Virus record (IMG/VR): IMGVR_UViG_3300017694_000094 | Span: 1 to 58,314 of that record | Length of the DNA: 58,314 nucleotides | Reading direction: 5' to 3' (one strand) | Source: a virus | Part shown: positions 3,068 to 54,154 of the stretch, piece after piece | Position numbering within the stretch: position 1 is the stretch's first letter | How the letters are laid out: every line of letters begins with the position of its first letter | Notes under the pieces: model-generated | Told to the model about the DNA's origin: nothing | Seen by the model: the letters and a program-made list of their open reading frames with translations, nothing else | The model's database searches: none | Made by a program: the position numbers and the translations under genes

Positions 3068-3132
3068 GTTGCCTTCCTCCGTGATGCTGGTTGCATCGTG
3101 GGCGGGTCGCGCACGGCCCGCCGTCGTTGCAA

Positions 3133-12039: not shown

Positions 12040-12071
12040 GCAGCCCCTGCGGTCACGGTCGCAGGGGCTGC
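12040..12071. terminator. convergent (bidirectional) terminator hairpin
   Basis: Perfect 12-bp stem GCAGCCCCTGCG / CGCAGGGGCTGC with an 8-nt loop, between the convergent gene ends. It overlaps the last codons of the giant ORF. Confidence 0.6.
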
Positions 12072-15000
12072 TTGATCGCCTTGATGTAGACCGAATTGAA
12101 CGCGGTAATCGTCCGCTTCTCGGCGTCCGTGACCTTCGCCATACGCTCGGCATAGGTGGCGGCGTCGATCTTCTTCTGATCCCTCGCCAGTTCCAGCCCG
12201 TTGCGCGCCTTGCGCACCTCCGACATGGTTTTCCGCGCCGCCTTCGCCGCGCCGATCAGGCCAACGGTCGGCTTCTCTTCCGCGATATACGCCCGCGCCG
12301 CCGCCACGCCGCTGCGCTGCGCATAGCTTTTCGCGTTGTCGACCACGCCCTCGACCTCTTCGAGCCGAGCATAGAACGCGGACTTGTCGTACCATGCCGG
12401 CTTCTTGCCGATCACCTTGCGAGCCAGCGGGATGTCGTTGACGCCCAGCACCGTCTCGGGGTCGCCGTCTGCCAGCTTCAGCGGCGCGGCCAGAGTCCGG
12501 TCCACGAACGCGCCCGCGCCGCCGGTGACCATCCCGAACAGATATTCCAGCGTCTCGGGCGACACGTCGACCGCGCCCGCGACAACCTCGTCGCCGCCGG
12601 TGCCGACGTTCAGCAAATCGGTGACGCCCTTCCAGACCGGGTTGACGTTATTCCAATAGCGCTGATTGTCCGGCTCCTTCGGGCCGAAGGGCGTGTCGTT
12701 CGGCATGATCGGGCGGCCGGCGTAATCCTTGTTCAGCGTCAGGTCGACGACCGGATCAGCGAACGTCGGCGAGATCATGTTCAGCAGGCTCCCCGAGCCG
12801 ATCGGGTTGAACGCCTCGAAGAACGCCATCAGCGCGTCGGTCGCGACGGTCATCGGCCGGTCGCCCTTGGCCCCCCGCACGATGCTCCGGCCCAGCGTGT
12901 GGAAGGCGTTGTACCCCCACGGCATCGGCAGCTTCAGGTACTCTCCCCACGGCCCCTTGACCATGAGGATCATGTTGCGGCTCTTCTCGAACTCGCCCAG
13001 CTTCTCGTACACTGGCTCGCCGTCGTCGTCGTCCGGCGACAGCATGGTATTGAGCAATTCCTGAAGCGCTCCGGCCACGACGATCGCGCCGACCACCTTC
13101 TGCACCCGGCGGTTGCCGAGCGCGACCATCATACGCGCCGTGCCCTGGATGCTGGCGTTGTAGAACAGGTACAGCGCGTTCATCAGCACACCGTACTGGC
13201 CGCGGCGGTTGAAGTTGACCGTCAGATTCTTGGCGATGCTCGCCGCCTGTGGTGCCGATACGCCCGCCTGCCGCGCGTTCTTGTACGCCGACAGGCGGAT
13301 CGCGTTCTCGACGCCGGTGTTCAGCTTGTCGATGAAGCCATAGGCCGCCTTGATGTCGCTCATCGCGATCATGGCAAGCTGCTTCGGCGCGGTGTTGAGG
13401 CCGGTCGGGTTTGGTCGACGCTTCGGATCGAACCGCCGCTCCATCTCTTTCCGCAGCGTCTCCAGATCCTGCATCTGGTTGTACGACACGCGCCCGCCCT
13501 CGTCGGTGAACTCGCGCCACCACCGACCCCACTCGCCCGTCTCATTGCCGAACGCGCCGCGGGTCGCCGCCGCCATTGCCGCGCGCCAGTCCTTCAGCGT
13601 GCCGCGCTGTAGCCCCGGCACGTCGATGCCGGCGAGATTGACGCCCGCGGTCTGCACGTCGCGGAAGGCGTTCGTGATGATGAACTCGGGGTTGAGGCTG
13701 GTGTTGACCGACGACAGGAAGCGATTCCACTTCCCCAGGAAGACGAGCGCTTGGCTGGTCTTCTGCTCGTCGAGTCGACGCATTGCCTCCGCCAACCGCC
13801 GCGCCGCCGGGTTGGCCTTGTTCATGGTCACGCGGGCTTCCTTGCCCTCGATCTTCAGGCTGACCGTCCAGTCGGCATCCTCGCCGACCAGCGCGCGAAC
13901 CGGGTAGCTTTCCACGAACCCCGTGAGCGGGTTCATCTGCCGCTTCATGGTGACCTTGTTGACGGTCCAGAAGTCGGGGTCCGGCGACGCTTTCGCCAGA
14001 TCGTAGAACGCGCGCGCCACCTTGTTCTTCTCGCCGCGGACGATCGCTTCCTCCGCCTGCATGATCGAATGCGCGATGATGTCGTCGGCCATGCTGCGGC
14101 GACCGAAGGCCCGCTTCGATTCCGCGCCGCGCACCGTCAGGCCCATGCCTCCCGTGCTGCCGCGTTCGTTGGCGTTGTCGAGTTCGGCGAACCCGCGCAG
14201 GGGGACGTAGAACTCGTATGCACTGTCCCAGCTATCCGCCTGCTCTTCACTTAGGAGTCCAGCCTCACGGCGTTCGTTGCGCGCGAACTCCAGCATCCCG
14301 TACACGCGGTCCGCCACCCGCTCGAAAGCGTTGGTGCGGCCGGCGCGATCAATGCGCGCGAGGATCGCCGCTGCTTCAATGTCGCTCATACCGGAGCCGC
14401 TGCCATCGGCGAAATCGGGGTTGATGCTGGCGACGTGTGCGTTCCGCTCTGGCGCGTGCTTGGCGTACAGGAACGACTCCAGTTCGTCGGCGCTGACGCC
14501 CTCCGCTTCCATCGCCGCGAATAGCGGGTCGACGTGCGCGTCGGTCAGCCGTTCCATCTTCGCGCCGACACGGCCGGTCATCAACTCTTCCGCCAGATAC
14601 GGACGCTCGTCGTCACGCAACTCGCGGCCGATCACCCGCTCCACCGCCGCCTCGGCGCGCAGCGCGGGCAACATGCGGTCTTGAAGCCGGACGCGCCATG
14701 CGTCGACGCCCTCGCCCAGTCGCCCGACCAGCGTCTTCGCCGCTTCGGTCGCCTCGCTCACGGTCGCCGGGTTCGGCGCAGCCGCATCGCCCATGATGCT
14801 CTCGCGCGGCGCGCCGCCGGCCGCCTCGCCCTCGCGTGCGCCGATCGCGCCCCTGTCAATTTGGCGCATGATGTCGCCAGCCGTCTGCGTGCGCGTCACC
14901 AGCTGGCGGATTGCGGCGATGAAGTCGCGGATGCGGCCGAGCGCTGCACCCATGAAGCCGGTGCGGTTGCCCTGCCACTGCGCGAACATGATCGCGACAG

Positions 15001-18000
15001 CCTCTTCCGTCTGCCCCGCTTCGTCCAGGCTGCCGTAACGCTCCTTCACGCGCGCCATGATCTTGGCGTCGGCGCGTGCCGCCTTCTCCAGCGTGACCCA
15101 CTCCGCGCCGCGGAACAGGCCCATATCGCGCAGCGCGTGGACGAACTCATGGTGGAAGGTGGCGGTCGGGTCCGCGCCGTTGTCGAGCGCGACCGAGATG
15201 ACGCCGTTGAAATACATGCCGGCGACGCGGTTGTCGTTCAGCAGCGTGTTGACGGTCGAGATCACCAGCCGGTCACCGCTGATTCCCATCCGCTTCGCCT
15301 CAGCCGCCAGCTTCGCGCGGACGGCATCCATGTCCGCGCCTTCGCCCGCGGCCTCGTCCGTGACCGACAGCTTCGCGCCGTCCGGTAGCGGCGGCAAGGG
15401 CGCGTTCTTCGCCGACGCTTCCGCGGTAAGCTGGCTCTCGATCCGGTTGACGTTGCCCGCCAGTTCGTCGATCTCGGCCTGCCCCGCGAACGCCTTCTTG
15501 GTCTGCGGCGTGTATTCGGCGATGTCGGTCTTCGCCCGCTCGATCTTCCCGCGCGCGTCGGCGAGGTCGCTCTCGAAGCCGCGCAGCACCGCCGCCGCCG
15601 ACTGCGGGATACCGTCCGGCGTCTCCGCGCGGATGCGCTGCTGCTGCTCGCCATTGCGGTTGAGGTACAGCGTGACGGACGTATCCTTGCCGTACACGGC
15701 CACGTCGACCGTCAGCGGGAAGCCGCTGATCTCGGCGATCTTGCGGTCGCGTACCGTCGTCTTCTTCGCGGCCATTTCTTCCATGCGGTCGAGGATCGCC
15801 TGACCGAACTCGGCGCGGACCGTGTATTCGGTGCCGCCCACGGTCGCCTTGAAGTTGTCGCCGCTAATGTCTTGGCGCTGCGCGATGTCCTTCTCGATCT
15901 CGGGAATCGCCGCGTTCTGACGCTCGATCGTCTCTTCTGCCAGCCGCACCCGCTCGGCCGCCGCGAAGACACTGCGCTCGAACCCGGCCTTGCGCAGTTG
16001 CGCCCGCTCCAGATCCTGCCGGTACTGCGTCAGTTCGAGGATGCGCGGGTCGGCCGTCGTCAGCGCCTTCGCCTGCTCGTACTGGCTGGCCTCGCCCAGA
16101 TCGTCCATCGATCGCAGGGACGGGTCGCCGTTGAAGAACCCGTCGATGAAGCGCGCCTTCGTCTCCATCATCTGCCACATCGTGGAATCGTAGGTGCCCT
16201 TGGTCGAGTAATCGCGGATCTCGATCTCGGGGTTCATGTTGCCCTGGCGCAGCCCGCGCCCGTTCCGCTGCTCGTCGTTCGCGGGATACCACTGCGGGTC
16301 GAGGTTGTGGATCGCATAGAGGCGGCGCTGCGCGTTGACGCCCGTTCCCATCTTCGGAACGCTGCCGATCAGCACCCGCACCTTGCCTTCGTTCATGTCG
16401 TTGAACAGGCGCTGCCGTGCAACGCTGGTCTTGTAATCGGAGATGATCGCCACCTCCGAATCCTTCAGCCCGCCGGCGATCAGGCGCTGGCGGATATAGC
16501 GGTGGATCTGGAAGTCTCCGTTGATGCCGAGATCGGAGAAGATCATCTGAGTCGCCGGCCCGGTGAACGCTGGCGTGCTGGCGTAGCCGCCCGCTTCCGC
16601 CCGATAGAACGGCTTGGCCTTCGTCTCTTCGGCGATGCGCGAGACGCTATCGATCAGCATCTCCAGCTTCGATTGCTCGTCCTCGCGCAGCGCCGGATTG
16701 ACGAGGCGCATATCGATCGCGGCCTTGCGGCCGTCGCCGATGACGGACAGCAGGATGTCGTCGCCCTTCTTCGGCTTCCCGCGGCGCGCCTCGATCGCCT
16801 TCATGCGCGCGCCGAGCGTCTGCTGGTATTCCTGCAAGGCCGGCGTCGGCTCCGCGACGATCATCTGGCGGCTGCCGCCCTTCAGCTTCGGCCGCACCAC
16901 GTACTGCTCAAGCTGGCGGCTGGTCACCACGTCCATGACCTGCCGCACCATCGCGGACAATTCGGGCACGTTGACGAACTTGGCGAACCGGGTCTGCGGC
17001 TTGTAGCCGCCGGCCGGGTCTTGCTCCAGCGCGGTCACCGTCTCGCCGAACGCGCCGGCCCATGCGTCGAACTGCTCCAGCCCGCGCTCCGCCAATTCGC
17101 TCGCCTGCTGATAGCGCTGGAGGCTGAACAACTCCGCCATCGTGTTCGTGACCGGCGTGCCCGACGCCAGCACATGGCTCCGGCCGGGGTTCTGCTCTTC
17201 GAGGTAGCGGGTCTTGGCGAACAGGTCGTAACTCATCGCCGAGCCGTTGGGGTCGACGCCGCGGACGCTCCCCATCTTGGTCGCGAAGTCCAGCTTGCGA
17301 AACAGGTGGGCCTCGTCGACGAACAGGAAATCGATACCGGTTTCCTCGAACGTGAACACCTGATCGGCCCGCTTCTTGCGACCGCTCAGCTTCTGCGTCA
17401 TCGACTCGATCTGCTGTTCGATCCGGCTGACCGTGATCCGCTTGGACGGGTCGCTGCTCTTCTCGGCCTTCAACTCGTTCAGGATGCCGCGGAAATCGTC
17501 GATCTGCTTCTTCAGCAGCCGGTCGGCGAACGCATCGCTGACCGGGATGAAGCCGAACGCAGAATGCGTGATGATGACCGCATCCAGATCCTCGGTCGCC
17601 ATGTTGGCAACGAACTGCTTACGGCGGTCCGTGTGGAACTGGCGCTCGTCCGCAACCATGATCTTCGCGGTCGGGTACTGCTCGTAGAACTCCTTGGTGA
17701 ACTGGCCGAGCATATGGTTCGGCACCGCGTACATGGGTTTGCGCACCAGCCCGAGCCGGCGCATTTCCATGCCCGCGCCGATCATGGCGCTGGTCTTCCC
17801 CGCGCCAACCGCGTGGGCCATGTACGTGTTGCCGGCCTGGATGATGCGCGACACCACGCGCTTCTGGTGCGGACGCCATGACCACGACTCCGCGATGCCC
17901 GGCGTCGTCAGGTACGATCCGTCATAGGTCGGCGCGACAAGATTGTTATAGGACTCGTTGTAGAGTCCTACCAACTCTCCAGCCCGCTTGTCGTCGCTCC

Positions 18001-21000
18001 ACACCCACTCCGAGAACTTGGCGCGCATGTCGCGCACCTTGTCCTGCGCGGCCTGCGTCTCGACCGGGTTGATGACGCGCTGCTCTTTGCCATCGGCGTC
18101 GCGATAGGTGTCGTAGATGTTGGTCTGCTGGCGGTTGAGCGCATCGTTCAGCAACTCGATCGCGTTGCGCCGGCCGGTGCCCCATTCCGTCGTCGCCGCC
18201 GCGCCGTAGGCGTTGCCATGCACGGACCACTGCGCCAGCTTCGGGCGATAGACCGCGTTGACGTTGCTCAGCCCCAGCGATTCCGCGAACTGCTGGATCA
18301 CCGGCGCGGGGATCCACGGCATTCCCAGATTGGCCGAGATGTCGGACGGTCCCAGCAAAGCCGGCTGCACCGCTTCCAGCGCGGCGACGTTCCGCCGCAG
18401 GTCGGGGTCGCGTGCCGCCTCCGCGCGCGCCATGTCCAACTTCTGGCGCACGTTGCCGGACAGGTACTGCTCGCGGGTCTGGTACGTCTCGCCCTGCCCT
18501 GGCACCCGGAACACGCTATTGCCCAGGTCCTCCAGCGCCTGACTGCGCGAGATGCCCGCGCGATCGGCAATCTCGCTGAGGTCGGGGCGGCCGGTCCGAT
18601 TCAGGACGTACAGCAGCGCGTCGTTCGCCGAGCGGATCTCCGGCACCGTCTCTTGGCTGACGACGTTACGGAAGAAGATCGCGCCCTTCTGCGCCTCGCC
18701 GGTATCGTCGTTGTAATGCTCGATCGACCGGAGGCGGTAGCCTTCCTGATCGTCCATGAAGGCGTCCACGTTCGGGCGCTTCACGATTACCTTGTCGGGC
18801 ATCTCTGCCGGGTCGAAGTCGCCCTCGTCCCACTCGCGGCCGAGCGCCGCCGCCGTCTCGCGCGCCGCGCGCCGCGCCGCCGCGATCTCCGCCAGCTTGG
18901 CATTCGGGTCTTCCGGCGTGAAGCTGCCCTCGTTGAAGAACCCGCCGGCAAGCCGCGCCTCTTCGCGCGCCTGCGCTCGCGCCGATTCCTGCTCGATCAC
19001 GGACGGGCGCTGGTAGCGGATCTCGGCCTTATTGATCGGGCCGAACTGCTGCACGAAGCGATCGTAATTGCTGTTCAGTTCAGCGCGCGCCGCTGTCGCC
19101 GCCGCGGTGTTGCTCGCCAAGTCGGCGGACAGCACCTTGCGAAGAGAGTCCCGAATTGGGACGAGGGCGCGGATGCGCTCCTGATCCGCCGCGGGGATGC
19201 CGCCCTTCACGCCCTTGCCGCGGCCCTCGACCGGCGAGCCAAGCCCGCCGCGCTGCTGCATCAGGCGACCGTCGCTGCCGACGTAGAACGATCCTTCCTT
19301 GCGCTCCGTCGTCTCGGTGTCGAAGTCGGTGGCCGGGCCGGTCCACGCGGCAATCTGCGTGCGCTCGGCGACGCGCTGGAGCGCGGCCGGCAAATCCTTC
19401 GCCATGTCCTGCCCGTCGCGCAGTCGGACACCGTAGCGCTCGCCGGCCGTCAGCAGGTCGAATAGCCCCTGCTCGCCCAGCACCTGATCGGGGTTCTCGA
19501 CGAAGTAGCTGTTGACTGCCGTCTCCGCCGTGCCGCCGCTGCGGGTTGGGAGCATAACATCGGTCGTGCCGACCCACTGGCGCGGACCGGGCGCGGCACC
19601 GGCCTCGCGCTTCTTCAGCACGATGATATCGGTCGTCACGTCCGTGCCTGCGTTCTCGCGGAACGCACCGCCCGGCAGCCGCACCGCGCCGACCAGATCC
19701 GCGCGCTCCGCCATCCACGCGCGCGCCTTGTCGCTCACCTTGTTCATGGTGCCGGCGCTGGTCACGAACATCAGCAGACCACCCGGCCGCACCGCATCCA
19801 GGCTCTTCGCGAAGAAGAAGTCGTGCAGCACGAACCCGAGATTGCCGTAATTCGGATCAGATCGGACCACCGTCTGCGAGAACGGCGGGTTGCCGATGAC
19901 GAGATCGTAGGTGTCGCGCGGGAGAACCCCCTGCGTGAAATCCGCCTGCCGGATACCCGACTGCGGGTAGAGAAGCTGGGCGATACGTGCCGTGATGCCG
20001 TCGAACTCGACGCCCTGGTACTGCGATCGCGCGGCGATCTCCGCCGGCATCATGCCGAGGAAATTGCCCGTACCCATGCCCGGCTCGAACACCTTGCCGC
20101 CGGTGAAGCCCATAGCCCGCACGGCGTCCCACATCGGCCGGATGATCTGCTCGGACGTGTAGTGCGCGTACTGCACCGACCGGCGAGCGGTGTCGTATTC
20201 CTCGTCGGTCAGCAGTTCGCGGACGCGCGGGCCGATCTTCTCGAACCCCTTGGAATAGCCGGAGCCGGTGTCGCTGAAGGCGTTCTTCAGGCCGCCCCAG
20301 CCGACATACTTGGCAAGCGCCGCCTGCTGCTCGCGCGTTGCCGGCGCGCCGCTGGCGTCGAGTTCGCGAACGATCTCGATCGCGCGCACGTTGTCCCGCG
20401 CCTTCTGCGCCGCGCCGCGCGCCTCGTCGAGCGCGCCCGGCTCGATACGCCAGTTCTCGCCGGTTACCCGTTCTGCCGCGCTGTCTCGGGCACCATCTCG
20501 CCGTCCACGTCCGGCGTCGGCTGCTCGGGCGGGAACTCGATCAGCGTCGACCGCACCTGCTGCTCGATCTCCCTCCGGCGCGCGTCGTCCTTCATCAGCC
20601 CGTTCGGATGCGTCGCCTCGCCCGCGCTCAGATCCTTGAACATCTGACCGGCTTCCTTCGCCTTCGCTTGCAGGTGCGCGTCCATCGCTCCGCTCTTGCG
20701 CAGCTGGTTGAACATCCGCGGCGCTTGATCCCGCATCGCGGTCAGATACTGCTCCTTGATCTCCACGGCCTTCCTCCTCGATCTGCGCGGCGCTGCTCAT
20801 GTCGCGAGCAATGGCGTCCATGCCTGGGTAATAACGCGCCGACTCGTAGAACGAGCGCAGATAAGGGCGCACGCTCTCGCCGATGTCGGCCACCATGCGG
20901 CTGCTGAAGTCGGCGAACTTGCGCGCGCCGGCCTCGATATGGAACACCGCCAGTTCCGCGCCCAGCGCCAGCACCTCGGGATCGATGCCCGAATTGATCT

Positions 21001-24000
21001 GGCCCATCTTGGCGCGCAGCTTCTCACGCAGGATCGCAGCGCGATCCGTGGTCACCAGCTTGTTGGATGCGCCGTAGGTTGCCGTCTCTCCGGCTGCCAC
21101 GCCCTTCGATGCGTTAGCGGCGGAACCCTCGCCCCGGCCGGAAGCGACATTCTGCTGCGCGCTTTCCTGCGCCTGCGCGGCCGGCGCGTCAACCCGGACG
21201 ATCGTGCCGCTCTTCAGCCCCTGCTCGATCTCATAATTGTTGAGCGAAGACGCGCCACCTGTCTCCACGTTGCGAAAGAACGCGCTGCGCTGGCCGGGGC
21301 GGCCATCGACCTCATAGGTGGTGCTGGCACCTTCGCGGCCTAGATACCCGACCGGGGCAGTGAAGACGTAGCGCTCGCCGCCACGAACCCAAGGGTTCGG
21401 GTTTTTCTTGTCCGTTGCTCGGCGCAGGGACGGCTTAGCCGCCGGGGCCGGGGCTGGTGTGACGACGGCCGGAGCGGGCGGGTTGAACCGCGTCATCATC
21501 TCTTCGACCGCGCGCTGCATGGCCTCGGCCTTGCCGAACCCACCGCCCGCGCCAGCCCCGCCCAGCGCGAAGGACACGGGCGATCCATCGTCCTGCGTGC
21601 GGACCGTCCAGCCCCGCGGCGTTTGCTCGACCCACACGGTCTTCCCGTACTGGCCGTCATAGTCGAAGTGGACGCGATCGCCGTTGTTGATCGCGGTGCG
21701 GGCTTCGGCCAGCGTCTTTGCCTCAACCGTCTTGGGGGCGGCAGGCTGCGGCGCAGGATCGCGCGCGCCCTGCTTCGCGCGCTGGTCGGCACGCGCCGTA
21801 TCCATCAAGTCGGGTTGGCCGGCGTTGTTGTCGAACAGCCCACCGTCGCTGCCAGCGGCTTTCTGCGCGACCGTCGCGCGCGAGCGGCCTTCGCTCTGGC
21901 GTTCTAGCGCGCGGCGCTGGTCGCCTTCGCGCTCGCCGAATGCGTCCGCTTGTACTGGTCGATCTTCCTGAGTTGCCCGGCCAGCTTCGCCGCGTCCTTC
22001 TGCTGCGCTGGCGACAGGCGGGGATGACTCGAAGCCTTCGACATTGCCGAAATCAGCGGAGCGAGGGGCGTCTTCGTCGAACGGGATGTCGAACGCTGCG
22101 TCGTCGGTTTGCTCATAAAAGTCCTCGCTCCGTGCCTCCGCCTTGCCGCGGAAATAATCCTCGACCGCTTCGAGCGAAGAACGCCCGTCAGCCATATACG
22201 CCGCAACGCCGTCGATGTCCTCGGCGGTCGCGTCGGTGATCCCGTATTCCTCCAGCCCGCGCTCGGCGAACACGCGCGCGCCCTCGCGGTCCGTCTCGTC
22301 CTGCCGCGCCGCCTTGCGATCGGCCACGTCCGCGGCGTCCGCCGGGCGGTACTGGTTCTCGAACGCGGAGCGATCCAGCATGTCTATGACCTGCCGCGTC
22401 GTCGGCCGCTCTTGGAAGTAGCCCGCCTCCGCCAGCAGTTCGCCGGCCTCGTCGAGCGTCATGCCGTTCTTGCGGAAGACGTGCCCGCCGCCCGGCGCGA
22501 ACTGCGATAGGTCGCGACTGCCCGCGCCCTGGTTGCGCGAGCGACGCTTCAGCGCATGGCCTTCGTCGTCGCGGATGCCGCCGTTGCGAGCGAGAAAGGT
22601 GACCGCATCCACCGGCGCAGTATCGCGCGTAGCGCGCGGCTTGGCGGCGGGGGGCGCTTGCTCTGCGGCCTCAACACGGCTGACGAAAGCGTCGGTGCTT
22701 TCCACCGGGGTCCGCGTCAGGCCCACACGCTCGGCGCGTTCGCGAAGATTGCCAGCCGGCGGTGGGGTGTTCGGCGCGGCGGGCGCGCCCTGCGGGTCCA
22801 GCTTGTTCGTGATCTGCTCGATCGCTTCAGCCGCGCCCATCACGTCACGGTTGGGCGGGCGAACCGCGCGCACCTCCGCCGCCTCGCCCATGACAGCGGC
22901 ATACGCGCCTTCGAGATACGAGAGCCGCGGGTTCCAGCCGGAGCCGCCGCCTTCGCGTGCCTTTACGACCGTGGACTGGTGACGATCGCTGATCTCGTAA
23001 TCGAGAATTGCCTGCACGTTACCGGCCTTGCCGACGCTCCAGCCATTAACCAGATCCTGCGCAACGGGGCTTTCGCGATGCGGCAGATCGCCCAGCGCGC
23101 TGGTCGCTCGCTTGAACTCCGTCGACTTCCATACCTTCTTGAACGTCGCGTCGTCGACCGCCTCGGAGGTGACAGGTTCTGTCACCCTCGCGCCCTGCTT
23201 CCGCATCTGATCTGCGCGTCGCGCGACCGCGGCGGCTTCCTCGACCGGCATACCGCCGGACAAGGTATCGCTGACCGCCATCTGTTGCGGCGACTGCTCT
23301 GCGGCTGGAGTGCTGACAGGAGTGACGCTGGATAGCGCCGCTTCGATCTCGCCGCGATACTTCGCGCTGTAGACCTGCGAGCCATCCTTGTTCACGACCG
23401 CGCGCGCCTTCGGGACCGCCTGCGCGATAGCCGCAAGCTGCGCCTCCGATGCGCCAGCGACGGCGATACCCTTGCCGCTCGGCGTCTCGGTGATCGTCGG
23501 CATGGTGACCGGGGCGGCGGCTGGCGGCGACACGACAGGATCTGTCCTATCGGCGACGGGCGCGGCCAGCGGCGCGGCTGGTTCCACTGTGGCATCAGCG
23601 ACGGGGGCGGGTTCCTGCTCAACTGCTGACGACGTGTCAGCAGCGGCGGGCGCGGCCGGCAACTCGACCTGCGCCGTTGACAGCGGCTCGTCCAGCAGGC
23701 GCGAGCGCTCGGCTTCCTCGATTGGCGCGGGCGGGGCGGCGTCGGCGGCGGTGCCGGCGGTGGCCCCGCGCTGCCCGCCGATGTGGCGCGCAGTCCATTC
23801 CATCGCCTGCGCGTTCGTCATGCCGGCGAACTGCGGGTTCGCTTTCACGATCGCACGGTCGACCGCCGCCGTGGGGTTGCGCGACATGCTGAGCGCGCCG
23901 CCCAGGCCGAAGTGATGCGCGGCGTACAGCGAGGCGTCGTCGACCGGGATGCCCGCGCGCGTCAGGCCCGCGGCGTTCTCTTCGGTCATGGCCCGCATCA

Positions 24001-25690
24001 AGCGGTCCTGCACCTCGGGATCATTCTTCGCGCCGGCCGGCGGGGTGCCGCCATAGACCTTCTCGTAGTAGCGGGCGAAGGTGCTGTCCGTGAACTGGTA
24101 GCGGCCCGATGCGCTCGACCGGCTGTTCGCCGCCGCGTCATTGCCGCCGCTCTCCGCCTGACGTGCGCGCGCCATGTACGATGTCACACTGACCTTCCCC
24201 TTGCGGGGCGTCTGTGACACCGGCGCGGCGGCGGGTTCAGCTGCTGCGGGCGTCTCGCCGGTCTGCGCGATCGCTTCCAGCGTTGCGGCTGGGTCTAGCC
24301 CGCCCGCGCGCATGTCGGCCTCGGCCTGCGCCTGCTCGTCGGCGGTCGGCCCGGCAACCGGCGTCAGCGATACGCCCGCATCCTGCAAGTCGGCGAAGAA
24401 CTCCTTCATGGAGCCGCCGCCGTCCAGATCGATGTTCACGCCCGGCTGTGCGCCCAACTCCGCGTCGCTCTGGTCGACGAAGGCGTCGCGGATCGTGCCG
24501 GTGCGCTGCTTGCCGTTGATGGTGATCGATACGCGCGTGCCGACCTCGGGCGCGCCGTTCTGCGTGAGGATGCCGTTGGCCTCGGTCGTCGCGGTGCTTG
24601 CGCCCATGACGCGCTTGCCCTCGGCGATCAGGTCCGTGGGTAGCGGGCTGGCCGCATCCGCCTCGGTCACCGGGGCCGGCGTGGCTTCGGCTGCCTCGAT
24701 CACGCCCGGCGCGACGCGCTGGCCGCGCAACCGCCGCGCCACCGCGCCCGGCGTTTCCACCGCGCCGCGGATTGCGCCGCCCATGAAGCCGCCCGCGATC
24801 GCGCCTGCCGCCGCCTGATCCGCCGCTTCGCGCCAGTCGAACCCGGCGTCTGTGCCAAGGTTCGAGCCGGCATATTCCACCGGCGACTGGAGCGCTTCCG
24901 TCAACGCCTCCGCGCCGAACGCCTGCGCGATGCGGCCGGCGACGGACTTCGCGCCCGCGCCGAAGATCCCGTGGATGCCGAGCCGTTCGAGCGCGGCGCT
25001 GCCGACCGCGGCCGGCAGGGCGGCGAACACGTCGGCGGCGTCGGCGTCCGTCTCGCCGTTGTTCTGCGCGCGCTGCTGGCCGGTGCTGCCAGCCTGAAGG
25101 CCGATGTACGGCGCGAGGCCAGCGCCCGTTGCCAGCAGCCCCATGTCCGCCGCGGACGATGCGCCCTGCTCCAGCACGAAGCGCGCCAGTCCGCCGATCG
25201 TCGGGTTCTTTTTCAGCCCGTCCCACGTCTGCTCGCCCTCGATGGGGCGGTTGCTGTATTCCTCGGCGGATTGCGTCTTTGCGCGCAGCCACTGCGCCGC
25301 CTCGCCGTCAGGATCGATGCCGACCTCCGTCAGCCCGGTCAGCGCCAACCGTCCGCCGCCGGCACCCAGCCCGCGCACACGACGCCAGAAGGATTCGCCG
25401 ACCCGGCCGAGTTCGCTATCCGCCTCGATCGGCGCGACCGCGCGCTTCTCTGCCTGCTCGCGCGCGCGTGCTTCCTGCCGGCGTGGAGCGGTGTCGGCCT
25501 CGCGCACGGTGCGGGCGAACGTCTCGGCCGCCTGCTTCTGCGGCTTGCCGAACGATGTCAGATCGAAATTGCTCTTATCCGACACGTCCTTCGCGCCGAA
25601 CAGGTCGTCCATGACCGATACGCCGATTGGCTTGGCGGTGTCCCGCTTTGGTCCGAAGATGTCATCTACCAGCTTCGGACCAAGGGCCAT
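12053..25690 (-). CDS. giant polyvalent protein (4,545 codons): SLT + N6-adenine MTase + SNF2 helicase + HExxH + membrane C-terminal region
   Basis: Uninterrupted 13,638-nt ORF. ATG 25690 lies behind GGGAG. All motifs read in frame: ESGGN/SGRYQF (24060-24154), EPGMGTGNF (20060-20086), NPPF (19880-19891), GAGKT (17792-17806), DEAH (17306-17317), QRNGRGLRQGN (16238-16270), HEFVH (15137-15151). Confidence 0.85.
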   Translation of the reverse strand: MALGPKLVDDIFGPKRDTAKPIGVSVMDDLFGAKDVSDKSNFDLTSFGKPQKQAAETFARTVREADTAPRRQEARAREQAEKRAVAPIEADSELGRVGESFWRRVRGLGAGGGRLALTGLTEVGIDPDGEAAQWLRAKTQSAEEYSNRPIEGEQTWDGLKKNPTIGGLARFVLEQGASSAADMGLLATGAGLAPYIGLQAGSTGQQRAQNNGETDADAADVFAALPAAVGSAALERLGIHGIFGAGAKSVAGRIAQAFGAEALTEALQSPVEYAGSNLGTDAGFDWREAADQAAAGAIAGGFMGGAIRGAVETPGAVARRLRGQRVAPGVIEAAEATPAPVTEADAASPLPTDLIAEGKRVMGASTATTEANGILTQNGAPEVGTRVSITINGKQRTGTIRDAFVDQSDAELGAQPGVNIDLDGGGSMKEFFADLQDAGVSLTPVAGPTADEQAQAEADMRAGGLDPAATLEAIAQTGETPAAAEPAAAPVSQTPRKGKVSVTSYMARARQAESGGNDAAANSRSSASGRYQFTDSTFARYYEKVYGGTPPAGAKNDPEVQDRLMRAMTEENAAGLTRAGIPVDDASLYAAHHFGLGGALSMSRNPTAAVDRAIVKANPQFAGMTNAQAMEWTARHIGGQRGATAGTAADAAPPAPIEEAERSRLLDEPLSTAQVELPAAPAAADTSSAVEQEPAPVADATVEPAAPLAAPVADRTDPVVSPPAAAPVTMPTITETPSGKGIAVAGASEAQLAAIAQAVPKARAVVNKDGSQVYSAKYRGEIEAALSSVTPVSTPAAEQSPQQMAVSDTLSGGMPVEEAAAVARRADQMRKQGARVTEPVTSEAVDDATFKKVWKSTEFKRATSALGDLPHRESPVAQDLVNGWSVGKAGNVQAILDYEISDRHQSTVVKAREGGGSGWNPRLSYLEGAYAAVMGEAAEVRAVRPPNRDVMGAAEAIEQITNKLDPQGAPAAPNTPPPAGNLRERAERVGLTRTPVESTDAFVSRVEAAEQAPPAAKPRATRDTAPVDAVTFLARNGGIRDDEGHALKRRSRNQGAGSRDLSQFAPGGGHVFRKNGMTLDEAGELLAEAGYFQERPTTRQVIDMLDRSAFENQYRPADAADVADRKAARQDETDREGARVFAERGLEEYGITDATAEDIDGVAAYMADGRSSLEAVEDYFRGKAEARSEDFYEQTDDAAFDIPFDEDAPRSADFGNVEGFESSPPVASAAEGRGEAGRATQEDRPVQADAFGEREGDQRRALERQSEGRSRATVAQKAAGSDGGLFDNNAGQPDLMDTARADQRAKQGARDPAPQPAAPKTVEAKTLAEARTAINNGDRVHFDYDGQYGKTVWVEQTPRGWTVRTQDDGSPVSFALGGAGAGGGFGKAEAMQRAVEEMMTRFNPPAPAVVTPAPAPAAKPSLRRATDKKNPNPWVRGGERYVFTAPVGYLGREGASTTYEVDGRPGQRSAFFRNVETGGASSLNNYEIEQGLKSGTIVRVDAPAAQAQESAQQNVASGRGEGSAANASKGVAAGETATYGASNKLVTTDRAAILREKLRAKMGQINSGIDPEVLALGAELAVFHIEAGARKFADFSSRMVADIGESVRPYLRSFYESARYYPGMDAIARDMSSAAQIEEEGRGDQGAVSDRDAGSSAADVQPAAQERSDGRAPASEGEGSRSDVQGSERGRGDASERADEGRRAPEGDRAAGAVDADRVPARAADAGRGRRDGARDSAAERVTGENWRIEPGALDEARGAAQKARDNVRAIEIVRELDASGAPATREQQAALAKYVGWGGLKNAFSDTGSGYSKGFEKIGPRVRELLTDEEYDTARRSVQYAHYTSEQIIRPMWDAVRAMGFTGGKVFEPGMGTGNFLGMMPAEIAARSQYQGVEFDGITARIAQLLYPQSGIRQADFTQGVLPRDTYDLVIGNPPFSQTVVRSDPNYGNLGFVLHDFFFAKSLDAVRPGGLLMFVTSAGTMNKVSDKARAWMAERADLVGAVRLPGGAFRENAGTDVTTDIIVLKKREAGAAPGPRQWVGTTDVMLPTRSGGTAETAVNSYFVENPDQVLGEQGLFDLLTAGERYGVRLRDGQDMAKDLPAALQRVAERTQIAAWTGPATDFDTETTERKEGSFYVGSDGRLMQQRGGLGSPVEGRGKGVKGGIPAADQERIRALVPIRDSLRKVLSADLASNTAAATAARAELNSNYDRFVQQFGPINKAEIRYQRPSVIEQESARAQAREEARLAGGFFNEGSFTPEDPNAKLAEIAAARRAARETAAALGREWDEGDFDPAEMPDKVIVKRPNVDAFMDDQEGYRLRSIEHYNDDTGEAQKGAIFFRNVVSQETVPEIRSANDALLYVLNRTGRPDLSEIADRAGISRSQALEDLGNSVFRVPGQGETYQTREQYLSGNVRQKLDMARAEAARDPDLRRNVAALEAVQPALLGPSDISANLGMPWIPAPVIQQFAESLGLSNVNAVYRPKLAQWSVHGNAYGAAATTEWGTGRRNAIELLNDALNRQQTNIYDTYRDADGKEQRVINPVETQAAQDKVRDMRAKFSEWVWSDDKRAGELVGLYNESYNNLVAPTYDGSYLTTPGIAESWSWRPHQKRVVSRIIQAGNTYMAHAVGAGKTSAMIGAGMEMRRLGLVRKPMYAVPNHMLGQFTKEFYEQYPTAKIMVADERQFHTDRRKQFVANMATEDLDAVIITHSAFGFIPVSDAFADRLLKKQIDDFRGILNELKAEKSSDPSKRITVSRIEQQIESMTQKLSGRKKRADQVFTFEETGIDFLFVDEAHLFRKLDFATKMGSVRGVDPNGSAMSYDLFAKTRYLEEQNPGRSHVLASGTPVTNTMAELFSLQRYQQASELAERGLEQFDAWAGAFGETVTALEQDPAGGYKPQTRFAKFVNVPELSAMVRQVMDVVTSRQLEQYVVRPKLKGGSRQMIVAEPTPALQEYQQTLGARMKAIEARRGKPKKGDDILLSVIGDGRKAAIDMRLVNPALREDEQSKLEMLIDSVSRIAEETKAKPFYRAEAGGYASTPAFTGPATQMIFSDLGINGDFQIHRYIRQRLIAGGLKDSEVAIISDYKTSVARQRLFNDMNEGKVRVLIGSVPKMGTGVNAQRRLYAIHNLDPQWYPANDEQRNGRGLRQGNMNPEIEIRDYSTKGTYDSTMWQMMETKARFIDGFFNGDPSLRSMDDLGEASQYEQAKALTTADPRILELTQYRQDLERAQLRKAGFERSVFAAAERVRLAEETIERQNAAIPEIEKDIAQRQDISGDNFKATVGGTEYTVRAEFGQAILDRMEEMAAKKTTVRDRKIAEISGFPLTVDVAVYGKDTSVTLYLNRNGEQQQRIRAETPDGIPQSAAAVLRGFESDLADARGKIERAKTDIAEYTPQTKKAFAGQAEIDELAGNVNRIESQLTAEASAKNAPLPPLPDGAKLSVTDEAAGEGADMDAVRAKLAAEAKRMGISGDRLVISTVNTLLNDNRVAGMYFNGVISVALDNGADPTATFHHEFVHALRDMGLFRGAEWVTLEKAARADAKIMARVKERYGSLDEAGQTEEAVAIMFAQWQGNRTGFMGAALGRIRDFIAAIRQLVTRTQTAGDIMRQIDRGAIGAREGEAAGGAPRESIMGDAAAPNPATVSEATEAAKTLVGRLGEGVDAWRVRLQDRMLPALRAEAAVERVIGRELRDDERPYLAEELMTGRVGAKMERLTDAHVDPLFAAMEAEGVSADELESFLYAKHAPERNAHVASINPDFADGSGSGMSDIEAAAILARIDRAGRTNAFERVADRVYGMLEFARNERREAGLLSEEQADSWDSAYEFYVPLRGFAELDNANERGSTGGMGLTVRGAESKRAFGRRSMADDIIAHSIMQAEEAIVRGEKNKVARAFYDLAKASPDPDFWTVNKVTMKRQMNPLTGFVESYPVRALVGEDADWTVSLKIEGKEARVTMNKANPAARRLAEAMRRLDEQKTSQALVFLGKWNRFLSSVNTSLNPEFIITNAFRDVQTAGVNLAGIDVPGLQRGTLKDWRAAMAAATRGAFGNETGEWGRWWREFTDEGGRVSYNQMQDLETLRKEMERRFDPKRRPNPTGLNTAPKQLAMIAMSDIKAAYGFIDKLNTGVENAIRLSAYKNARQAGVSAPQAASIAKNLTVNFNRRGQYGVLMNALYLFYNASIQGTARMMVALGNRRVQKVVGAIVVAGALQELLNTMLSPDDDDGEPVYEKLGEFEKSRNMILMVKGPWGEYLKLPMPWGYNAFHTLGRSIVRGAKGDRPMTVATDALMAFFEAFNPIGSGSLLNMISPTFADPVVDLTLNKDYAGRPIMPNDTPFGPKEPDNQRYWNNVNPVWKGVTDLLNVGTGGDEVVAGAVDVSPETLEYLFGMVTGGAGAFVDRTLAAPLKLADGDPETVLGVNDIPLARKVIGKKPAWYDKSAFYARLEEVEGVVDNAKSYAQRSGVAAARAYIAEEKPTVGLIGAAKAARKTMSEVRKARNGLELARDQKKIDAATYAERMAKVTDAEKRTITAFNSVYIKAIKQPLRP
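13040..13200 (-). other. hydrophobic (putative transmembrane) segments in C-terminal region of giant protein
   Basis: GVLMNALYLFYNASIQGTARMMVALG and VVGAIVVAGALQELL read from the translation. Confidence 0.4.
14950..15330 (-). other. zincin-like HExxH module of giant protein
   Basis: ATFHHEFVHALRDMG at 15137-15151 (+/-). Domain extent is guessed. Confidence 0.45.
16150..17880 (-). other. SNF2-type helicase module of giant protein
   Basis: WRPHQKRVV, AVGAGKTSAM (Walker A), FLFVDEAHLFRKL (DEAH), LASGTPVTN, and the QRNGRGLRQGN arginine-finger motif. Confidence 0.75.
19600..20330 (-). other. N6-adenine DNA methyltransferase module of giant protein
   Basis: KYVGWGGLKNAF lead-in, motif I EPGMGTGNF, motif IV VIGNPPFSQT. 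Borders are approximate. Confidence 0.75.
20464..20766 (-). other. frame-discordant segment A: 100-codon alternative-frame ORF encoding a helical domain (nested gene or displaced part of giant protein)
   Basis: ORF track 20464..20766. About 90 of 101 codons end in G/C, while the giant frame here is about half A/T-ending and low-complexity. AGGAGG lies 6 nt before GTG 20766. TAA at 20464-20466. Confidence 0.55.
21904..22023 (-). other. frame-discordant segment B inside giant ORF (alternative frame ends at TAG 21904-21906)
   Basis: Coordinates congruent to 1 mod 3 are G/C in 18/20 (21961-22020) and 19/20 (21901-21960), against 9/20 and 12/20 for the giant-ORF third position. The alternative frame reads LSPAQQKDAAKLAGQLRKIDQYKRTH. 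Confidence 0.5.
23770..24178 (-). other. lytic transglycosylase (SLT-like) domain of giant protein
   Basis: AESGGNDAAANSRSSASGRYQFTDSTF...LYAAHHFG. The catalytic-Glu context is typical of SLT/phage transglycosylases. Domain borders are approximate. Confidence 0.7.
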
Positions 25691-28083: not shown

Positions 28084-28574
28084 TCTTCGCCCCCTTGATC
28101 GATACGCATCTCGAACAGTTCGCCGTTCTTCGTGAACCCACGCCGCTCGTACACCTTGGCGACACGGGCCGCGCCGGGCAGCGTGTCATTCCAGGAAAGC
28201 GCGATCTCGATGACCTTGCGGTTCGCCCGCGCCCATTCGACATAGCCGTCGATCAGCGCCAACGTGTGCCCCATCTCCGCGCCCTTGCGCACGTACAGGA
28301 ATAGATCGTTCGCGACCAGCCGGTCACCTATATGATACACCCGCGATAGCGTGCCGATCATGAAGCCGACTACCTTGCCGCCCTGCTCGGCGACCCGCAC
28401 GTAGGATGCCTGCGGTCCATTCTGGTTCTGCGCCGACACCGCGCCCATGAGCATCTGCTGCATGGCCTTCTCGCTGATCCCCACGCGGGCACGATACTTC
28501 GACGCCGCGTGCATCTCGCGCAGCATTTCCGCCATGACCGTGATGTCGGCGAACTTGGCGGCGCGCGTTGTCAC
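28068..28574 (-). CDS. GNAT-family acetyltransferase
   Basis: QGGKVVGFMIG...LFLYVRKGAEMGHTLALIDGYVEWAR...KVYERRGF shows the GNAT beta4-alpha3 layout. Confidence 0.65.
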   Translation of the reverse strand: MTTRAAKFADITVMAEMLREMHAASKYRARVGISEKAMQQMLMGAVSAQNQNGPQASYVRVAEQGGKVVGFMIGTLSRVYHIGDRLVANDLFLYVRKGAEMGHTLALIDGYVEWARANRKVIEIALSWNDTLPGAARVAKVYERRGFTKNGELFEMRIDQGGEECQAS

Positions 28575-32221: not shown

Positions 32222-32222
32222 C

Positions 32223-46187: not shown

Positions 46188-46194
46188 GGCTACC

Positions 46195-54054: not shown

Positions 54055-54154
54055 GGCAGCGATTGCTCCAGCCTGTTCCACACCCGCTTCAGGCTGGCCC
54101 GTGTGGTGGCGTGGTGCGCCTGGGCGCGGCGGCGGTTGTTGCAGGTGCGGAGCC

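Follow-up and report, generated by a model that had tools for sequence, protein, structure and literature searches.

An intact DarB-type methylase-helicase unit within a giant phage polyvalent protein

The window, i.e. the whole 58,314-nucleotide stretch of viral DNA that was analysed, holds a phage genome of about 58.2 kb in which one exceptionally long minus-strand gene forms the final gene of the late (virion) operon, with the other late genes on the same strand. Its ATG is preceded, at a distance of 8-9 nt, by a GGGAG ribosome-binding site that abuts the end of the preceding gene at its stop codon, and its GC3 of 0.85 is similar to that of the other genes on the contig. Clustered by exact sequence, the protein stands alone as a singleton, on a 58,314-bp JGI/Logan contig. 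The segment from 16150 to 20330, in which a sequence-only reading had placed a DarB-like methylase-helicase core, lies wholly within this ORF. The gene and the parts of its product, from the N- to the C-terminus, are as follows:

12053..25690, minus strand: giant single gene (4545 aa, about 490 kDa; ORF list and translation)
24566..25204, minus strand: N-terminal conserved region, Gly/Ala-rich and mildly hydrophobic (aa ~163-375; weak PHROG matches)
23834..24181, minus strand: lytic transglycosylase domain, phiKZ gp144-like (aa 504-619; PHROG and phmmer/PDB)
20543..21190, minus strand: conserved helical region 5' of the methylase unit (aa ~1501-1716; common to Bcep22-type giants)
20165..20458, minus strand: LPD36-type lead-in domain (aa 1745-1842; GxGU motif present as GWGG in KYVGWGG)
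19592..20164, minus strand: gamma-class N6-adenine DNA methyltransferase domain (aa 1843-2033; Pfam, P1 DarB alignment and motifs)
17906..19591, minus strand: inter-domain region, possible DNA-recognition part (aa 2034-2595; conserved among DarB-like proteins)
16091..17893, minus strand: SF2 / SNF2-like helicase-translocase (aa 2600-3200; Pfam ResIII and P1 DarB alignment)
14855..15340, minus strand: candidate zincin-type metallopeptidase (aa ~3451-3612; HEFVH at 3514-3518, downstream EE at 3562-3563)
12056..14713, minus strand: C-terminal constant module, mostly helical (aa 3660-4545, ~880 aa; Pfam LPD38, AF2 and BFVD)
12428-13015, minus strand: LPD38 (aa 4226-4421; Pfam LPD38, E 1e-36 to 8e-38)

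Judged by its sequence, the core is a genuine and intact DarB-type unit made up of LPD36, an N6-adenine methylase and an SNF2-like helicase, which bears out what had been read from its motifs. The family phrog_10089 ('DarB-like antirestriction') matches aa 1648-3453 with 1866 bits, a tblastn search with the 1436-aa core found matches in 142 phage and 2053 plasmid records, the best of them about 44-45% identical across >90% of the 1436 aa, and BLASTP against P1 DarB returned three collinear HSPs (E 5e-23, 6e-21 and 4e-11); the homology of the core is therefore far beyond chance. The phage counterparts in BcepIL02 (gp70), Bcep22, JC1, DC1, CSP3 and Ralstonia phages are ~44% identical. When seven cores were aligned, P1 DarB included, all catalytic motifs of the present core proved intact and not degenerate. 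The LPD36 domain, defined as in PMC5512222, starts with ENWRIEPGALDEARG at aa 1745 (window 20458-20414), about 100 nt beyond position 20330, and also holds KYVGWGGLKNAF at aa 1794 (20311-20276); its GxGU motif is kept as G[WYE]G[GA] in 7/7 aligned cores, that of P1 DarB among them. The methyltransferase domain contains an HYTS cap (TS, not TP), motif I EPGMGTGNF and motif IV GNPPF, with NPPF at aa 1934 (19891-19880), exceeds the Pfam cut-offs of 25.3 for Eco57I and 20.4 for N6_Mtase, with 26.6 and 22.7 bits respectively, and is 27% identical to aa 91-280 of P1 DarB, the region of the 6e-21 HSP. The inter-domain region that follows has no Pfam family at or above cut-off; it is spanned by phrog_10089, phrog_11801 and phrog_1685 and aligns collinearly by BLASTP with BcepIL02 gp70 and the L004 giant. 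Within the helicase, which aligns with P1 DarB aa 784-1678, the motifs GAGKT (aa 2629), DEAH (aa 2792; 17317-17306), SGTP (aa 2843), MGTGVN and QRNGRGLRQGN (aa 3141; 16270-16238) are all conserved, and ResIII scores 25.3 bits (cut-off 22.5), with Helicase_C (23.3 bits) and SNF2-rel_dom (17.0 bits) sub-threshold.

The N-terminal region peaks at 1.15-1.41 in hydropathy, carries a GxxxGxxxG motif (aa 296) and weakly matches phrog_2206 (virion RNA polymerase), phrog_15406 and phrog_37402 (E about 4e-6) over their N-terminal parts, which are the N-termini of other giant virion proteins. The sequence-only reading had also joined an SLT 'head' to the core; the linkage stood, as a transglycosylase domain lies in the same polypeptide (phrog_4067 'transglycosylase', E 2e-16), but its placement did not, since the domain starts at aa 504 and is preceded by a 500-aa N-terminal region. 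Its catalytic Glu lies in AES (aa 512-514), with SSASGRYQF and YAAHHFG further on, and both motifs and Glu line up with phiKZ gp144 in a phmmer search of the PDB (3bkh / 9xps, E 0.005); Pfam SLT and Transglycosylas were sub-threshold only. The helical region that leads into the methylase unit is matched by phrog_10089 (E 2e-46) and phrog_938 (E 2e-19), and BLASTP alignments to BcepIL02 gp70 and the L004 giant begin at aa 1537-1541.

Downstream of the helicase, the HExxH...E signature is conserved, and the region that carries it is a candidate metallopeptidase. Across 24 homologs the H, E, H and the E further downstream vary hardly or not at all, and every phage giant examined has one HExxH at the same relative position. 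The AF2 model (core pLDDT 80-97) places a helix, three strands and the HExxH helix in a predicted zincin-like topology. The region has no Pfam match, and Foldseek returned nothing significant with this model, M61, MATCAP, lethal factor and selecase being among the top matches. The C-terminal module, which carries a YVPLRGF ('PLxRFG'-type) motif, is modelled by AF2 with a mean pLDDT of 82 and a pTM of 0.81. It has 72 homologs, nearly all LPD38 proteins with varied N-terminal effector domains, and BFVD yields 67 viral matches at E <= 0.001, with TM reaching 0.89, every one a C-terminal piece of a polyvalent protein. In many phages the module is reused with other cargo domains. No match was found among PDB folds (best E 0.42); with no relative of solved structure to go by, any role given to the module is a guess. 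The 'membrane-type tail' once proposed here is not supported: it comes down to one weakly hydrophobic 19-mer (aa 4199-4217, Kyte-Doolittle 1.67), which falls in a helix of a confidently modelled helical domain (AF2).

Elsewhere in the genome, the following genes bear on the locus:

40881-43139, minus strand: portal (late/virion gene)
38680-39678, minus strand: major head protein (late/virion gene)
31050-31697, minus strand: endolysin (late/virion gene)
28068..28574, minus strand: GNAT acetyltransferase gene, three ORFs upstream of the giant gene (phrog_1249 acetyltransferase, E 5e-18)
53569..54210, minus strand: small phage Dam-type N6-adenine methyltransferase (EWYTP ... NPPF; Pfam PF05869, phrog_111)

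The GNAT gene, for which Pfam Acetyltransf_1 is sub-threshold, is syntenic with acyl-CoA N-acyltransferases of Bcep22-like and Lastavirus phages (BcepIL02 gp65, SopranoGao gp10), and in BcepIL02, SopranoGao and VvAW1, too, the giant gene comes at the end of the operon. Up to three DNA-modification functions had been counted. The stand-alone Dam-type methylase is genuine (PF05869 at 39.5 bits, cut-off 28.1; phrog_111 E 6e-23), but a supposed Mom-like GNAT at 922-1497 is not supported, with no match in Pfam, PHROGs or NCBIfam and a weak coding signal (GC3 of 0.69-0.74, compared with 0.82-0.89 for real genes); the recognisable DNA methylase functions are therefore two, not three.

The giant protein is a phage-type "polyvalent protein" sensu Iyer et al. 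2017 and has the same design as Bcep22 gp75, BcepIL02 gp70 (4667 aa) and JC1 gp69 (4515 aa). Since phages of Burkholderia, Ralstonia and Klebsiella had already yielded giant "DarB-like" proteins of such design, the present protein adds an example and not a new design. In the Bcep22-like (Lessievirus) giants, which also include those of DC1 and CSP3 (orf43) and have further homologs in Ralstonia phages and in Klebsiella Lastavirus SopranoGao (gp06, 4369 aa), a protein of similar size runs from a transglycosylase through LPD36-methylase-SNF2 helicase and one HExxH to a C-terminal LPD38, and its gene closes the virion module, preceded at a distance of a few ORFs by a GNAT gene. Relative to BcepIL02 gp70, the core is 39-42% and the C-terminal module 27% identical, whereas the genome is otherwise unrelated to those of Bcep22-like phages, gp70 and a DUF2303 protein being the only BcepIL02 proteins with matches, and the portal is <=35% identical to that of any cultured phage. 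The first ~1500 aa cannot be aligned with the Bcep22-like giants, whose transglycosylase lies near the N-terminus, in contrast to the phiKZ gp144-like subtype at aa 504; the present transglycosylase, which is of another subtype, went undetected when the SLT domains of the other giants were used as an HMM.

P1 DarB (2255 aa, YP_006479.1), from a myovirus, shares the collinear LPD36, methylase and helicase with their helicase motifs, QRNGRG included, but is only 20-27% identical, has NVPF and DEGH in place of NPPF and DEAH, and is without the transglycosylase, HExxH and LPD38 module. It is packaged by means of a 30-residue signal at its N-terminus, with the help of DarA, Hdf, DdrA, DdrB and Ulx, partners that are unannotated in the Bcep22-like relatives (PMC9144972, PMC10269572). 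Homologs on plasmids and conjugative elements are as close to the present core as the phage ones; the 1692-aa Roseomonas plasmid protein WP_099780981.1 (about 45% identity, 93% of length) has the same motifs with a canonical TP cap, and its gene lies among genes for PAPS reductase, a zincin metallopeptidase and a ParB-domain protein, a grouping typical of anti-restriction regions. These plasmid proteins differ in being stand-alone, without transglycosylase or LPD38 module, and conjugation, not a virion, would deliver them, if they are delivered at all.

Other LPD38-bearing phage polyvalent proteins (P0003-P0071; Iyer et al. 2017) have the predicted fold in common with the present one, and the closest metagenomic relatives among them are 47-56% identical over the C-terminal ~880-1100 aa, HExxH region included. 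They carry other cargo, such as InPase, PF18760, zeta toxin or RelA/SpoT, with no methylase-helicase Pfam domain recorded among those listed. One such phage, L010, has early genes in common with the present genome (Erf, exonuclease, DUF2303). Another, L009, shares two ORFs upstream of the giant gene and has in the same place not one gene but two, encoding a transglycosylase-InPase protein and an LPD38 protein, with no DarB unit; the methylase-helicase pair is therefore exchangeable cargo. Among short-tailed phages, T7 gp16 and the N4 virion RNA polymerase are comparable in that each is a large protein inside the virion and exits the capsid together with the DNA, the former with an N-terminal lytic transglycosylase and the latter a ~3500-aa enzyme acting on incoming DNA. 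Their enzymatic cargo is unlike that of the present protein, and in the PHROG comparison the one similarity is the weak match (E ~4e-6) of aa 200-372 to the N-terminal part of phrog_2206.

We consider it probable that the giant is a late-made, virion-packaged polyvalent protein that carries several units on a conserved carrier and is released into the host with the DNA. By analogy with its homologs, the transglycosylase would open the peptidoglycan at penetration, and the methylase-translocase would load on the entering linear DNA, track along it with ATP and shield it in cis against type I restriction, as genetics has shown P1 DarB to do; the means would be methylation, occupancy or clearing of the DNA, or a combination of these. 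The candidate metallopeptidase may cut the polyprotein into working pieces, and the conserved N- and C-terminal modules may serve virion incorporation and exit. To our knowledge, methylation by P1 DarB has not been demonstrated; it was reportedly only proposed by Iyer et al. The low identity to P1 DarB, the TS cap, the missing annotation of the P1 partners in Bcep22-like relatives and the lack of a significant library or fold match for the metallopeptidase weigh against the preferred reading. Delivery combined with anti-restriction is the published reading of the DarB-like family (PMC5512222; PMC10269572), and P1 DarB itself is packaged in the head, at about 40 copies in each virion, and guards DNA in cis against type I restriction (PMC5512222, PMC9024508).

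Were the protein instead never delivered, it would methylate progeny DNA in the producing cell before packaging, like an orphan methylase, its size reflecting gene fusion. Late expression with the structural genes and the presence of an orphan Dam-type methylase as a modification strategy would fit, but JC1 gp69, with 51 unique peptides in CsCl-purified virions and the second-highest mass spectrometry score among virion proteins (PMC9144972), and P1 DarB are physically in virions, and DarB protects in cis any head-packaged DNA (PMC5512222); this is the least probable of the alternatives. Only slightly less improbable is a role mainly as a DNA-entry motor, with the terminal modules as its anchor where the DNA enters, in which the SNF2-like translocase would pull the genome in (compare the N4 virion RNA polymerase) and the methylase would be DNA-binding or secondary. 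The fully intact translocase motifs, the fusion to a transglycosylase and modules common to other giant ejected proteins, the weak phrog_2206 match and the gene's ejection-protein position in the late operon are consistent with such a motor, and we know of no biochemical resolution of the P1 DarB mechanism. However, related phages have the same carrier modules without a helicase (L009 with InPase; others with PF18760, the PF06414 zeta toxin and more), so a translocase is not needed for entry in this lineage; >2000 plasmids carry the unit without phage delivery modules, and darB-less P1 still infects non-restricting hosts (Iida 1987, via PMC5512222, PMC9144972).

Unlikely too, if a little less so than either, is that the unit counters a defence other than type I restriction (BREX, DISARM or another methylation-linked system) or marks phage DNA as self versus host. 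NCBIfam gives the methylase a weak likeness to BREX PglX and MADS MAD2 and the helicase one to DISARM DrmD, at E 4e-5 to 3e-4 and far below the family cut-offs, but gamma-class methylases and SNF2 helicases show likenesses of this kind in general, and the family's only genetic evidence, from P1, concerns the type I systems EcoB and EcoK. The preferred explanation, delivery with anti-restriction, is also favoured by the genome's hexamer composition: 29/64 palindromic hexamers do not occur, although together about 299 occurrences of them would be expected, compared with 0/1268 non-palindromic hexamers of comparable expectation, a pattern of restriction pressure on the genome.

The DarB-like core lies within an uninterrupted ORF on the minus strand (12053..25690), whose translation yields a giant protein of 4545 aa and ~490 kDa that encloses the interval 16150-20330, where a sequence-only reading had placed a methylase-helicase. 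The GC3 of the giant gene (0.85) is similar to that of the capsid gene on the same contig, a GGGAG ribosome-binding site precedes its ATG, and the ATG is located 4 bases past the stop codon of the upstream ORF. The window is a complete JGI/Logan metagenomic contig of 58,314 bp that ends in an exact direct repeat of 123 bp (1-123 = 58192-58314), so the 58,191-bp genome is probably complete and either circularly closed or terminally redundant. The giant forms a singleton cluster in the protein collection, and it combines disparate biochemical activities in a single ORF (a transglycosylase, a DNA methylase, a helicase, an HExxH domain and LPD38), as is characteristic of polyvalent proteins.

Features of the giant protein (residue positions, N- to C-terminus; all encoded on the minus strand)
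aa ~163-375: Gly/Ala-rich, mildly hydrophobic region (weak PHROG matches, E ~4e-6)
aa 504-619: lytic transglycosylase (phrog_4067 'transglycosylase', E 2e-16 with the isolated segment)
aa ~650-1500: mostly low-complexity linkers, with three patches common to the 2302-aa SLT+InPase protein of L009, a related metagenomic phage contig
aa ~1501-1716: helical region conserved among Bcep22-type giants
aa 1745-3430: DarB-type unit and a post-helicase region likewise alignable to DarB (alignment)
aa 1745: ENWRIEPGALDEARG (motif search; window 20458-20414, slightly beyond 16150-20330)
aa 1794: KYVGWGGLKNAF (motif search)
aa 1934: NPPF (motif search; GNPPF at aa 1933-1937)
aa 2629: GAGKT (not among the motifs quoted in the sequence-only reading)
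aa 2792: DEAH (motif search)
aa 2843: SGTP (likewise not quoted)
aa 3141: QRNGRGLRQGN (motif search)
aa ~3451-3612: single HExxH domain, HEFVH at 3514-3518 with EE downstream (motif conservation, predicted topology)
aa 3660-4545: conserved, mostly helical module with LPD38 and a YVPLRGF motif (Pfam, structure model)

All of the motifs on which the methylase-helicase assignment had been based (ENWRIEPGALDEARG, KYVGWGGLKNAF, NPPF, DEAH and QRNGRGLRQGN) are present, with the first falling slightly outside the range originally proposed. Seven cores were aligned with MAFFT, comprising those of the window, L004 (an IMG/VR relative with a giant of its own), BcepIL02 gp70, SopranoGao gp06, VvAW1 gp01, a Roseomonas plasmid protein and P1 DarB. 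Directly ahead of the methylase, the GxG[GAS] motif of LPD36 occurs as KYVGWGG (aa 1794-1800), and this motif column is conserved in 7/7 cores, with P1 DarB reading GEGG. The methylase is of the EcoKI/TaqI-like gamma class of N6-adenine enzymes, as motif I (EPGMGTGNF) is followed by motif IV (GNPPF), and an SF2 helicase of the SWI2-SNF2-like type is fused C-terminal to it, forming the dyad. In the window the helicase motifs are intact (I GAGKT, II DEAH, III SGTP, V-like MGTGVN and VI QRNGRGLRQGN), and alignment to DarB and the plasmid homolog reveals catalytic motifs that are not degenerate; P1 DarB itself is less canonical than the window at two positions (NVPF and DEGH). Iyer et al. (PMC5512222) described a 'TP' motif capping the helix N-terminal to the methylase, and at this position the window reads HYTS (TS). 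All five aligned phage giants share TS, with TP found in P1 DarB and the plasmid protein, so the TS cap is a feature of the clade and not decay of the window sequence. When isolated segments were searched against Pfam, the methylase exceeded the cut-offs of Eco57I and N6_Mtase and the helicase that of ResIII, with Helicase_C and SNF2-rel_dom just under theirs; the core has no match among PDB sequences at E <= 0.01.

Profile and pairwise searches uphold the DarB-like assignment. The family phrog_10089 ('DarB-like antirestriction') matches aa 1648-3453 with 1866 bits, and P1 DarB aligns to the giant by BLASTP in three collinear blocks of 20-27% identity (E 5e-23, 6e-21 and 4e-11) that pair window aa 1843-2033, 2555-2996 and 3093-3297 with DarB aa 91-280, 784-1267 and 1461-1678, respectively. 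A tblastn search with the 1436-aa core matched 142 phage records, 71 of which contain one match spanning at least 80% of the core. The top phage matches are ~44% identical and derive from the Burkholderia phages BcepIL02, Bcep22, BcepMigl, DC1, JC1 and CSP3 and from many Ralstonia phages, with Pseudoalteromonas, Microcystis, Vibrio, Erwinia and Klebsiella phages following at 37-40% identity; the core of L004 is 50-54% identical to that of the window. The same type of search matched 2053 plasmid records, with ~45% identity in Roseomonas, Rhizobium, Agrobacterium and Methylosinus. The homolog on a Roseomonas plasmid (NZ_CP024583.1, 83522-103616) sits in a multi-gene cluster with an XF1762 family protein, DUF4326, a zincin-like metallopeptidase, a PAPS reductase, a ParB N-terminal domain protein and a DNA cytosine methylase; a PAPS reductase also adjoins the giant gene module in BcepIL02 (gp67).

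The first 760 aa of the giant gave one homolog match, itself uninformative, in a search of 5.8 billion proteins. The Gly/Ala-rich region weakly resembles the N-termini of further families of giant virion proteins, among them the virion RNA polymerase family. The transglycosylase contains the Family 1 / GH23 motifs AES (512-514), SSASGRYQF and LYAAHHFG. In a phmmer search of PDB sequences it aligns to phiKZ gp144 (3bkh) with an E-value of 0.005, and the catalytic Glu and the SSAxGxxQF and YxAHxFG motifs are in register; Pfam SLT is sub-threshold on the segment. An HMM constructed from the SLT domains of the L004, BcepIL02, SopranoGao and L009 giants does not detect the window domain, which therefore belongs to a different subtype from that of the other giants.

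C-terminal to the DarB-type unit, the motif and the predicted topology of aa ~3451-3612 mark a candidate metallopeptidase. The two histidines and the glutamate of its HExxH, as well as the downstream glutamate, are invariant or nearly so across 24 homologs, and every phage giant examined has one HExxH in the same relative place. In the AlphaFold model the domain adopts a zincin arrangement (a helix, three strands and the HExxH helix) with a core pLDDT of 80-97. Foldseek matches to the PDB are non-significant for the domain, with the metallopeptidases M61, MATCAP, lethal factor and selecase among the top ones; Pfam yielded no match and a profile search of PDB sequences was also non-significant.

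The C-terminal module matches Pfam LPD38 (PF18857) with 127-131 bits against a cut-off of 27 (E 1e-36), and the giant thus carries domains of the phage-only kind, namely LPD38 and the transglycosylase. The predicted structure of aa 3660-4545 has a mean pLDDT of 82 and a pTM of 0.81. A Foldseek search of the PDB with this module returned nothing significant (best E 0.42); the top matches, generic helical membrane proteins, were rejected as noise (E >= 0.4, TM < 0.1). At E <= 0.001 and with TM up to 0.89, 67 predicted viral structures resemble the module; each corresponds to a C-terminal piece of an entry named 'large polyvalent protein', and the N-terminal cargo varies among these entries. The sequence-only reading had described this end of the protein as a membrane-type tail, which the hydropathy scan does not bear out: only one 19-residue window of the whole protein has a Kyte-Doolittle mean above 1.5 (aa 4199-4217, 1.67), and this marginal segment lies inside a helix of the confident model.

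A search with the last 1116 aa of the giant shows how this carrier is reused. It found 72 proteins, nearly all of which contain LPD38 and most of which are 800-1950 aa long with other cargo domains. Two of the 72 are encoded on ~60-kb contigs related to the window phage: L010, which has the early genes Erf, exonuclease and DUF2303 in common with the window, and L009, which has in common two ORFs upstream of the giant gene. At the corresponding place L009 carries two genes, one for the SLT+InPase protein of 2302 aa and one for an LPD38 protein of 1576 aa, the last ~1000 residues of which are 56% identical to the window. The lineage of the window therefore displays a cargo swap directly, with a fused gene containing the DarB unit in the window as compared to two genes and an InPase cargo in L009. 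Conversely, the L004 giant resembles that of the window in its dyad (50% identity) and HExxH region and has a different C-terminus. Because of the two-gene locus of L009 and the different C-terminus of L004, we view the DarB unit as a cassette that moves between carriers, which agrees with the earlier proposal of a core placed inside a presumptive injected protein.

The giant gene is located among late and virion genes, on the same strand and downstream of a TerL fragment and the portal, head, endolysin and GNAT genes, and the early recombination genes (Erf, exonuclease and DUF2303) lie downstream of it.

Features of the window outside the giant gene (all on the minus strand)
43156-43890: ORF with the TerL nuclease domain, 244 aa; first in order of the late genes
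40881-43139: portal, late gene
38680-39678: major head protein, late gene
34164-36626: 820-aa protein with an amidase-like part, late gene
31050-31697: endolysin, late gene
28068-28574: GNAT acetyltransferase, late gene; followed by three ORFs and then the giant gene
53569-54210: Dam-type N6-adenine methylase with WMNPPFG (PF05869, 39.5 bits against a cut-off of 28.1; phrog_111, E 6e-23)

The terminal position of the giant gene is common to the window, BcepIL02, SopranoGao and VvAW1. Assignment of the window to the Bcep22-like (Lessievirus) genomes was rejected, as neither backbone nor synteny is common: by tblastn only 2 of 64 BcepIL02 proteins match the window (gp70 and the DUF2303 protein gp11), and megablast against the window found only a 225-nt stretch. 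The portal is at most 35% identical to that of any cultured phage, and those phages have mixed hosts. Clues to the host of the window phage are few, as a tRNA search of the window found none and a scan of genome contigs returned only ~30% identical matches, to Helicobacter and a Rhodobacteraceae MAG. A GNAT / acyl-CoA N-acyltransferase is encoded a few ORFs upstream of the giant gene in the window (28068-28574, minus strand), BcepIL02 (gp65) and SopranoGao (gp10), and its recurrence in three otherwise unrelated backbones suggests that the acetyltransferase is functionally linked to the ejected-protein module.

Proteins of this type have been described previously. The dyad of methylase and helicase, the domains LPD36 and LPD38 and the metallopeptidase theme were all defined by Iyer et al. 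(2017; PMC5512222). In cis protection of DNA against EcoB/EcoK type I restriction is known only for P1, through its DarB (PMC5512222), which is present in the head in ~40 copies per virion and is believed to enter the cell (PMC9024508). Among the Burkholderia phages, the CSP3 paper attributes transglycosylase, helicase and methylase domains to 'a DarB-like multidomain gene' (PMC10269572), and the JC1 paper treats the same type of protein and reports 51 unique peptides of gp69 from purified virions (PMC9144972); giants of this kind also appear among the putative ejection proteins listed by Casjens and colleagues (PMC8402733). The architecture, the 'DarB-like antirestriction' annotation and the injected-effector interpretation are thus already published, and the window adds one divergent, apparently complete example from an uncultured phage to a documented family. 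New here are this divergent member on an uncultured backbone, the phiKZ-type transglycosylase 500 residues from its N-terminus, and a clear within-lineage case in which cargo was swapped and genes were fused. The example shows the DarB-type methylase-helicase unit to be a travelling cassette, exchanged among plasmids and phages whose backbones are unrelated.

The window itself shows the domain content and the intact motifs; from what is established for the homologs, we infer that the giant protein would be packaged in the virion and leave it with the DNA. The transglycosylase would open the cell wall, and the methylase-translocase would load on the entering linear DNA and track along it, protecting the DNA by methylation and/or occupancy, as in the model proposed by Iyer et al. 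The HExxH domain may cut the polyprotein into units, and the terminal modules would serve packaging and exit. A bolder reading, which we offer tentatively and consider rather doubtful, is that the Gly/Ala-rich N-terminal region and the C-terminal LPD38 module together form a cargo-independent 'delivery cassette' of short-tailed phages, with the DarB unit as one of many swapped cargoes. The terminal modules would then guide polyproteins of half a megadalton into the capsid and, on exit, through the tail. This reading draws above all on the ~880-aa LPD38 module and concerns a property of the whole family, not of the window alone; if true, the module would be ejection machinery of a new structural class, and it might be exploited to bring designed proteins into bacteria.

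The composition of the genome fits strong restriction pressure. In the unit 1-58191, 29 of 64 palindromic hexamers are absent, against a summed Markov expectation of ~299 occurrences, whereas all 1268 non-palindromic hexamers expected at least 15 times do occur. The missing palindromes include GGCGCC (0 observed vs 67.7 expected), CTCGAG (0 vs 30.4), CCATGG (0 vs 26.1), GACGTC (0 vs 26.0) and TGATCA (0 vs 20.4), as well as CACGTG, AAGCTT, CCCGGG, CTGCAG and GCATGC (0 each vs 15-17). Depletion extends to the 4-mers GGCC (402 vs 570) and CTAG (17 vs 49) but not to GATC (530 vs 490), in agreement with the Dam-type methylase that the phage itself encodes; the separate enzyme of this type proposed from the sequence is confirmed by both PF05869 and phrog_111. 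Site avoidance can counter type II enzymes and is much harder against the bipartite sites of type I systems, against which DarB is held to act. The DarB unit, the orphan Dam-type methylase and palindrome loss would together constitute a layered anti-restriction strategy, which is expected and illustrates known biology.

A further modification gene, a Mom-like GNAT at 922-1497, could not be substantiated: the ORF (922-1497/1665, minus strand) has no match in Pfam, PHROGs or NCBIfam and no tblastn match to a plasmid XF1762 protein, and its GC3 is atypically low (0.69-0.74). The only recognisable GNAT in the window is that at 28068-28574, a gene of the virion operon that shows no evident connection with DNA modification. 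ORFs in window 1-2000 have GC3 values of 0.69-0.74, as compared to 0.82-0.89 in the rest of the genome, and none of those tested matched a family; this stretch may be non-coding, regulatory or recently acquired.

Several minor observations concern the late region. The sole terminase-like ORF (43156-43890, minus strand) is similar to large terminases only in their C-terminal nuclease part (phrog_5653; phrog_2 positions 428-596 of 807), and none of the ORFs scanned showed a terminase ATPase domain. Directly upstream of it, an 805-aa ORF (43890-46307, minus strand) has no Pfam, PHROG or PDB sequence match, and its sequence, judged by eye, looks more like a repeat protein of the tailspike type than like an ATPase. 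At 32895-33469 there are four diverged copies of a 53-nt unit (60-75% identity, 132-219 nt apart), which fall in 31697-33936, a stretch without an ORF in the GC3-based gene list. A tandem-like pair of 125-nt repeats (29124-29380; 78% identity, 132 nt apart) is located inside ORF 28571-29803 (minus strand) and probably reflects an internal protein repeat in a virion-operon protein.
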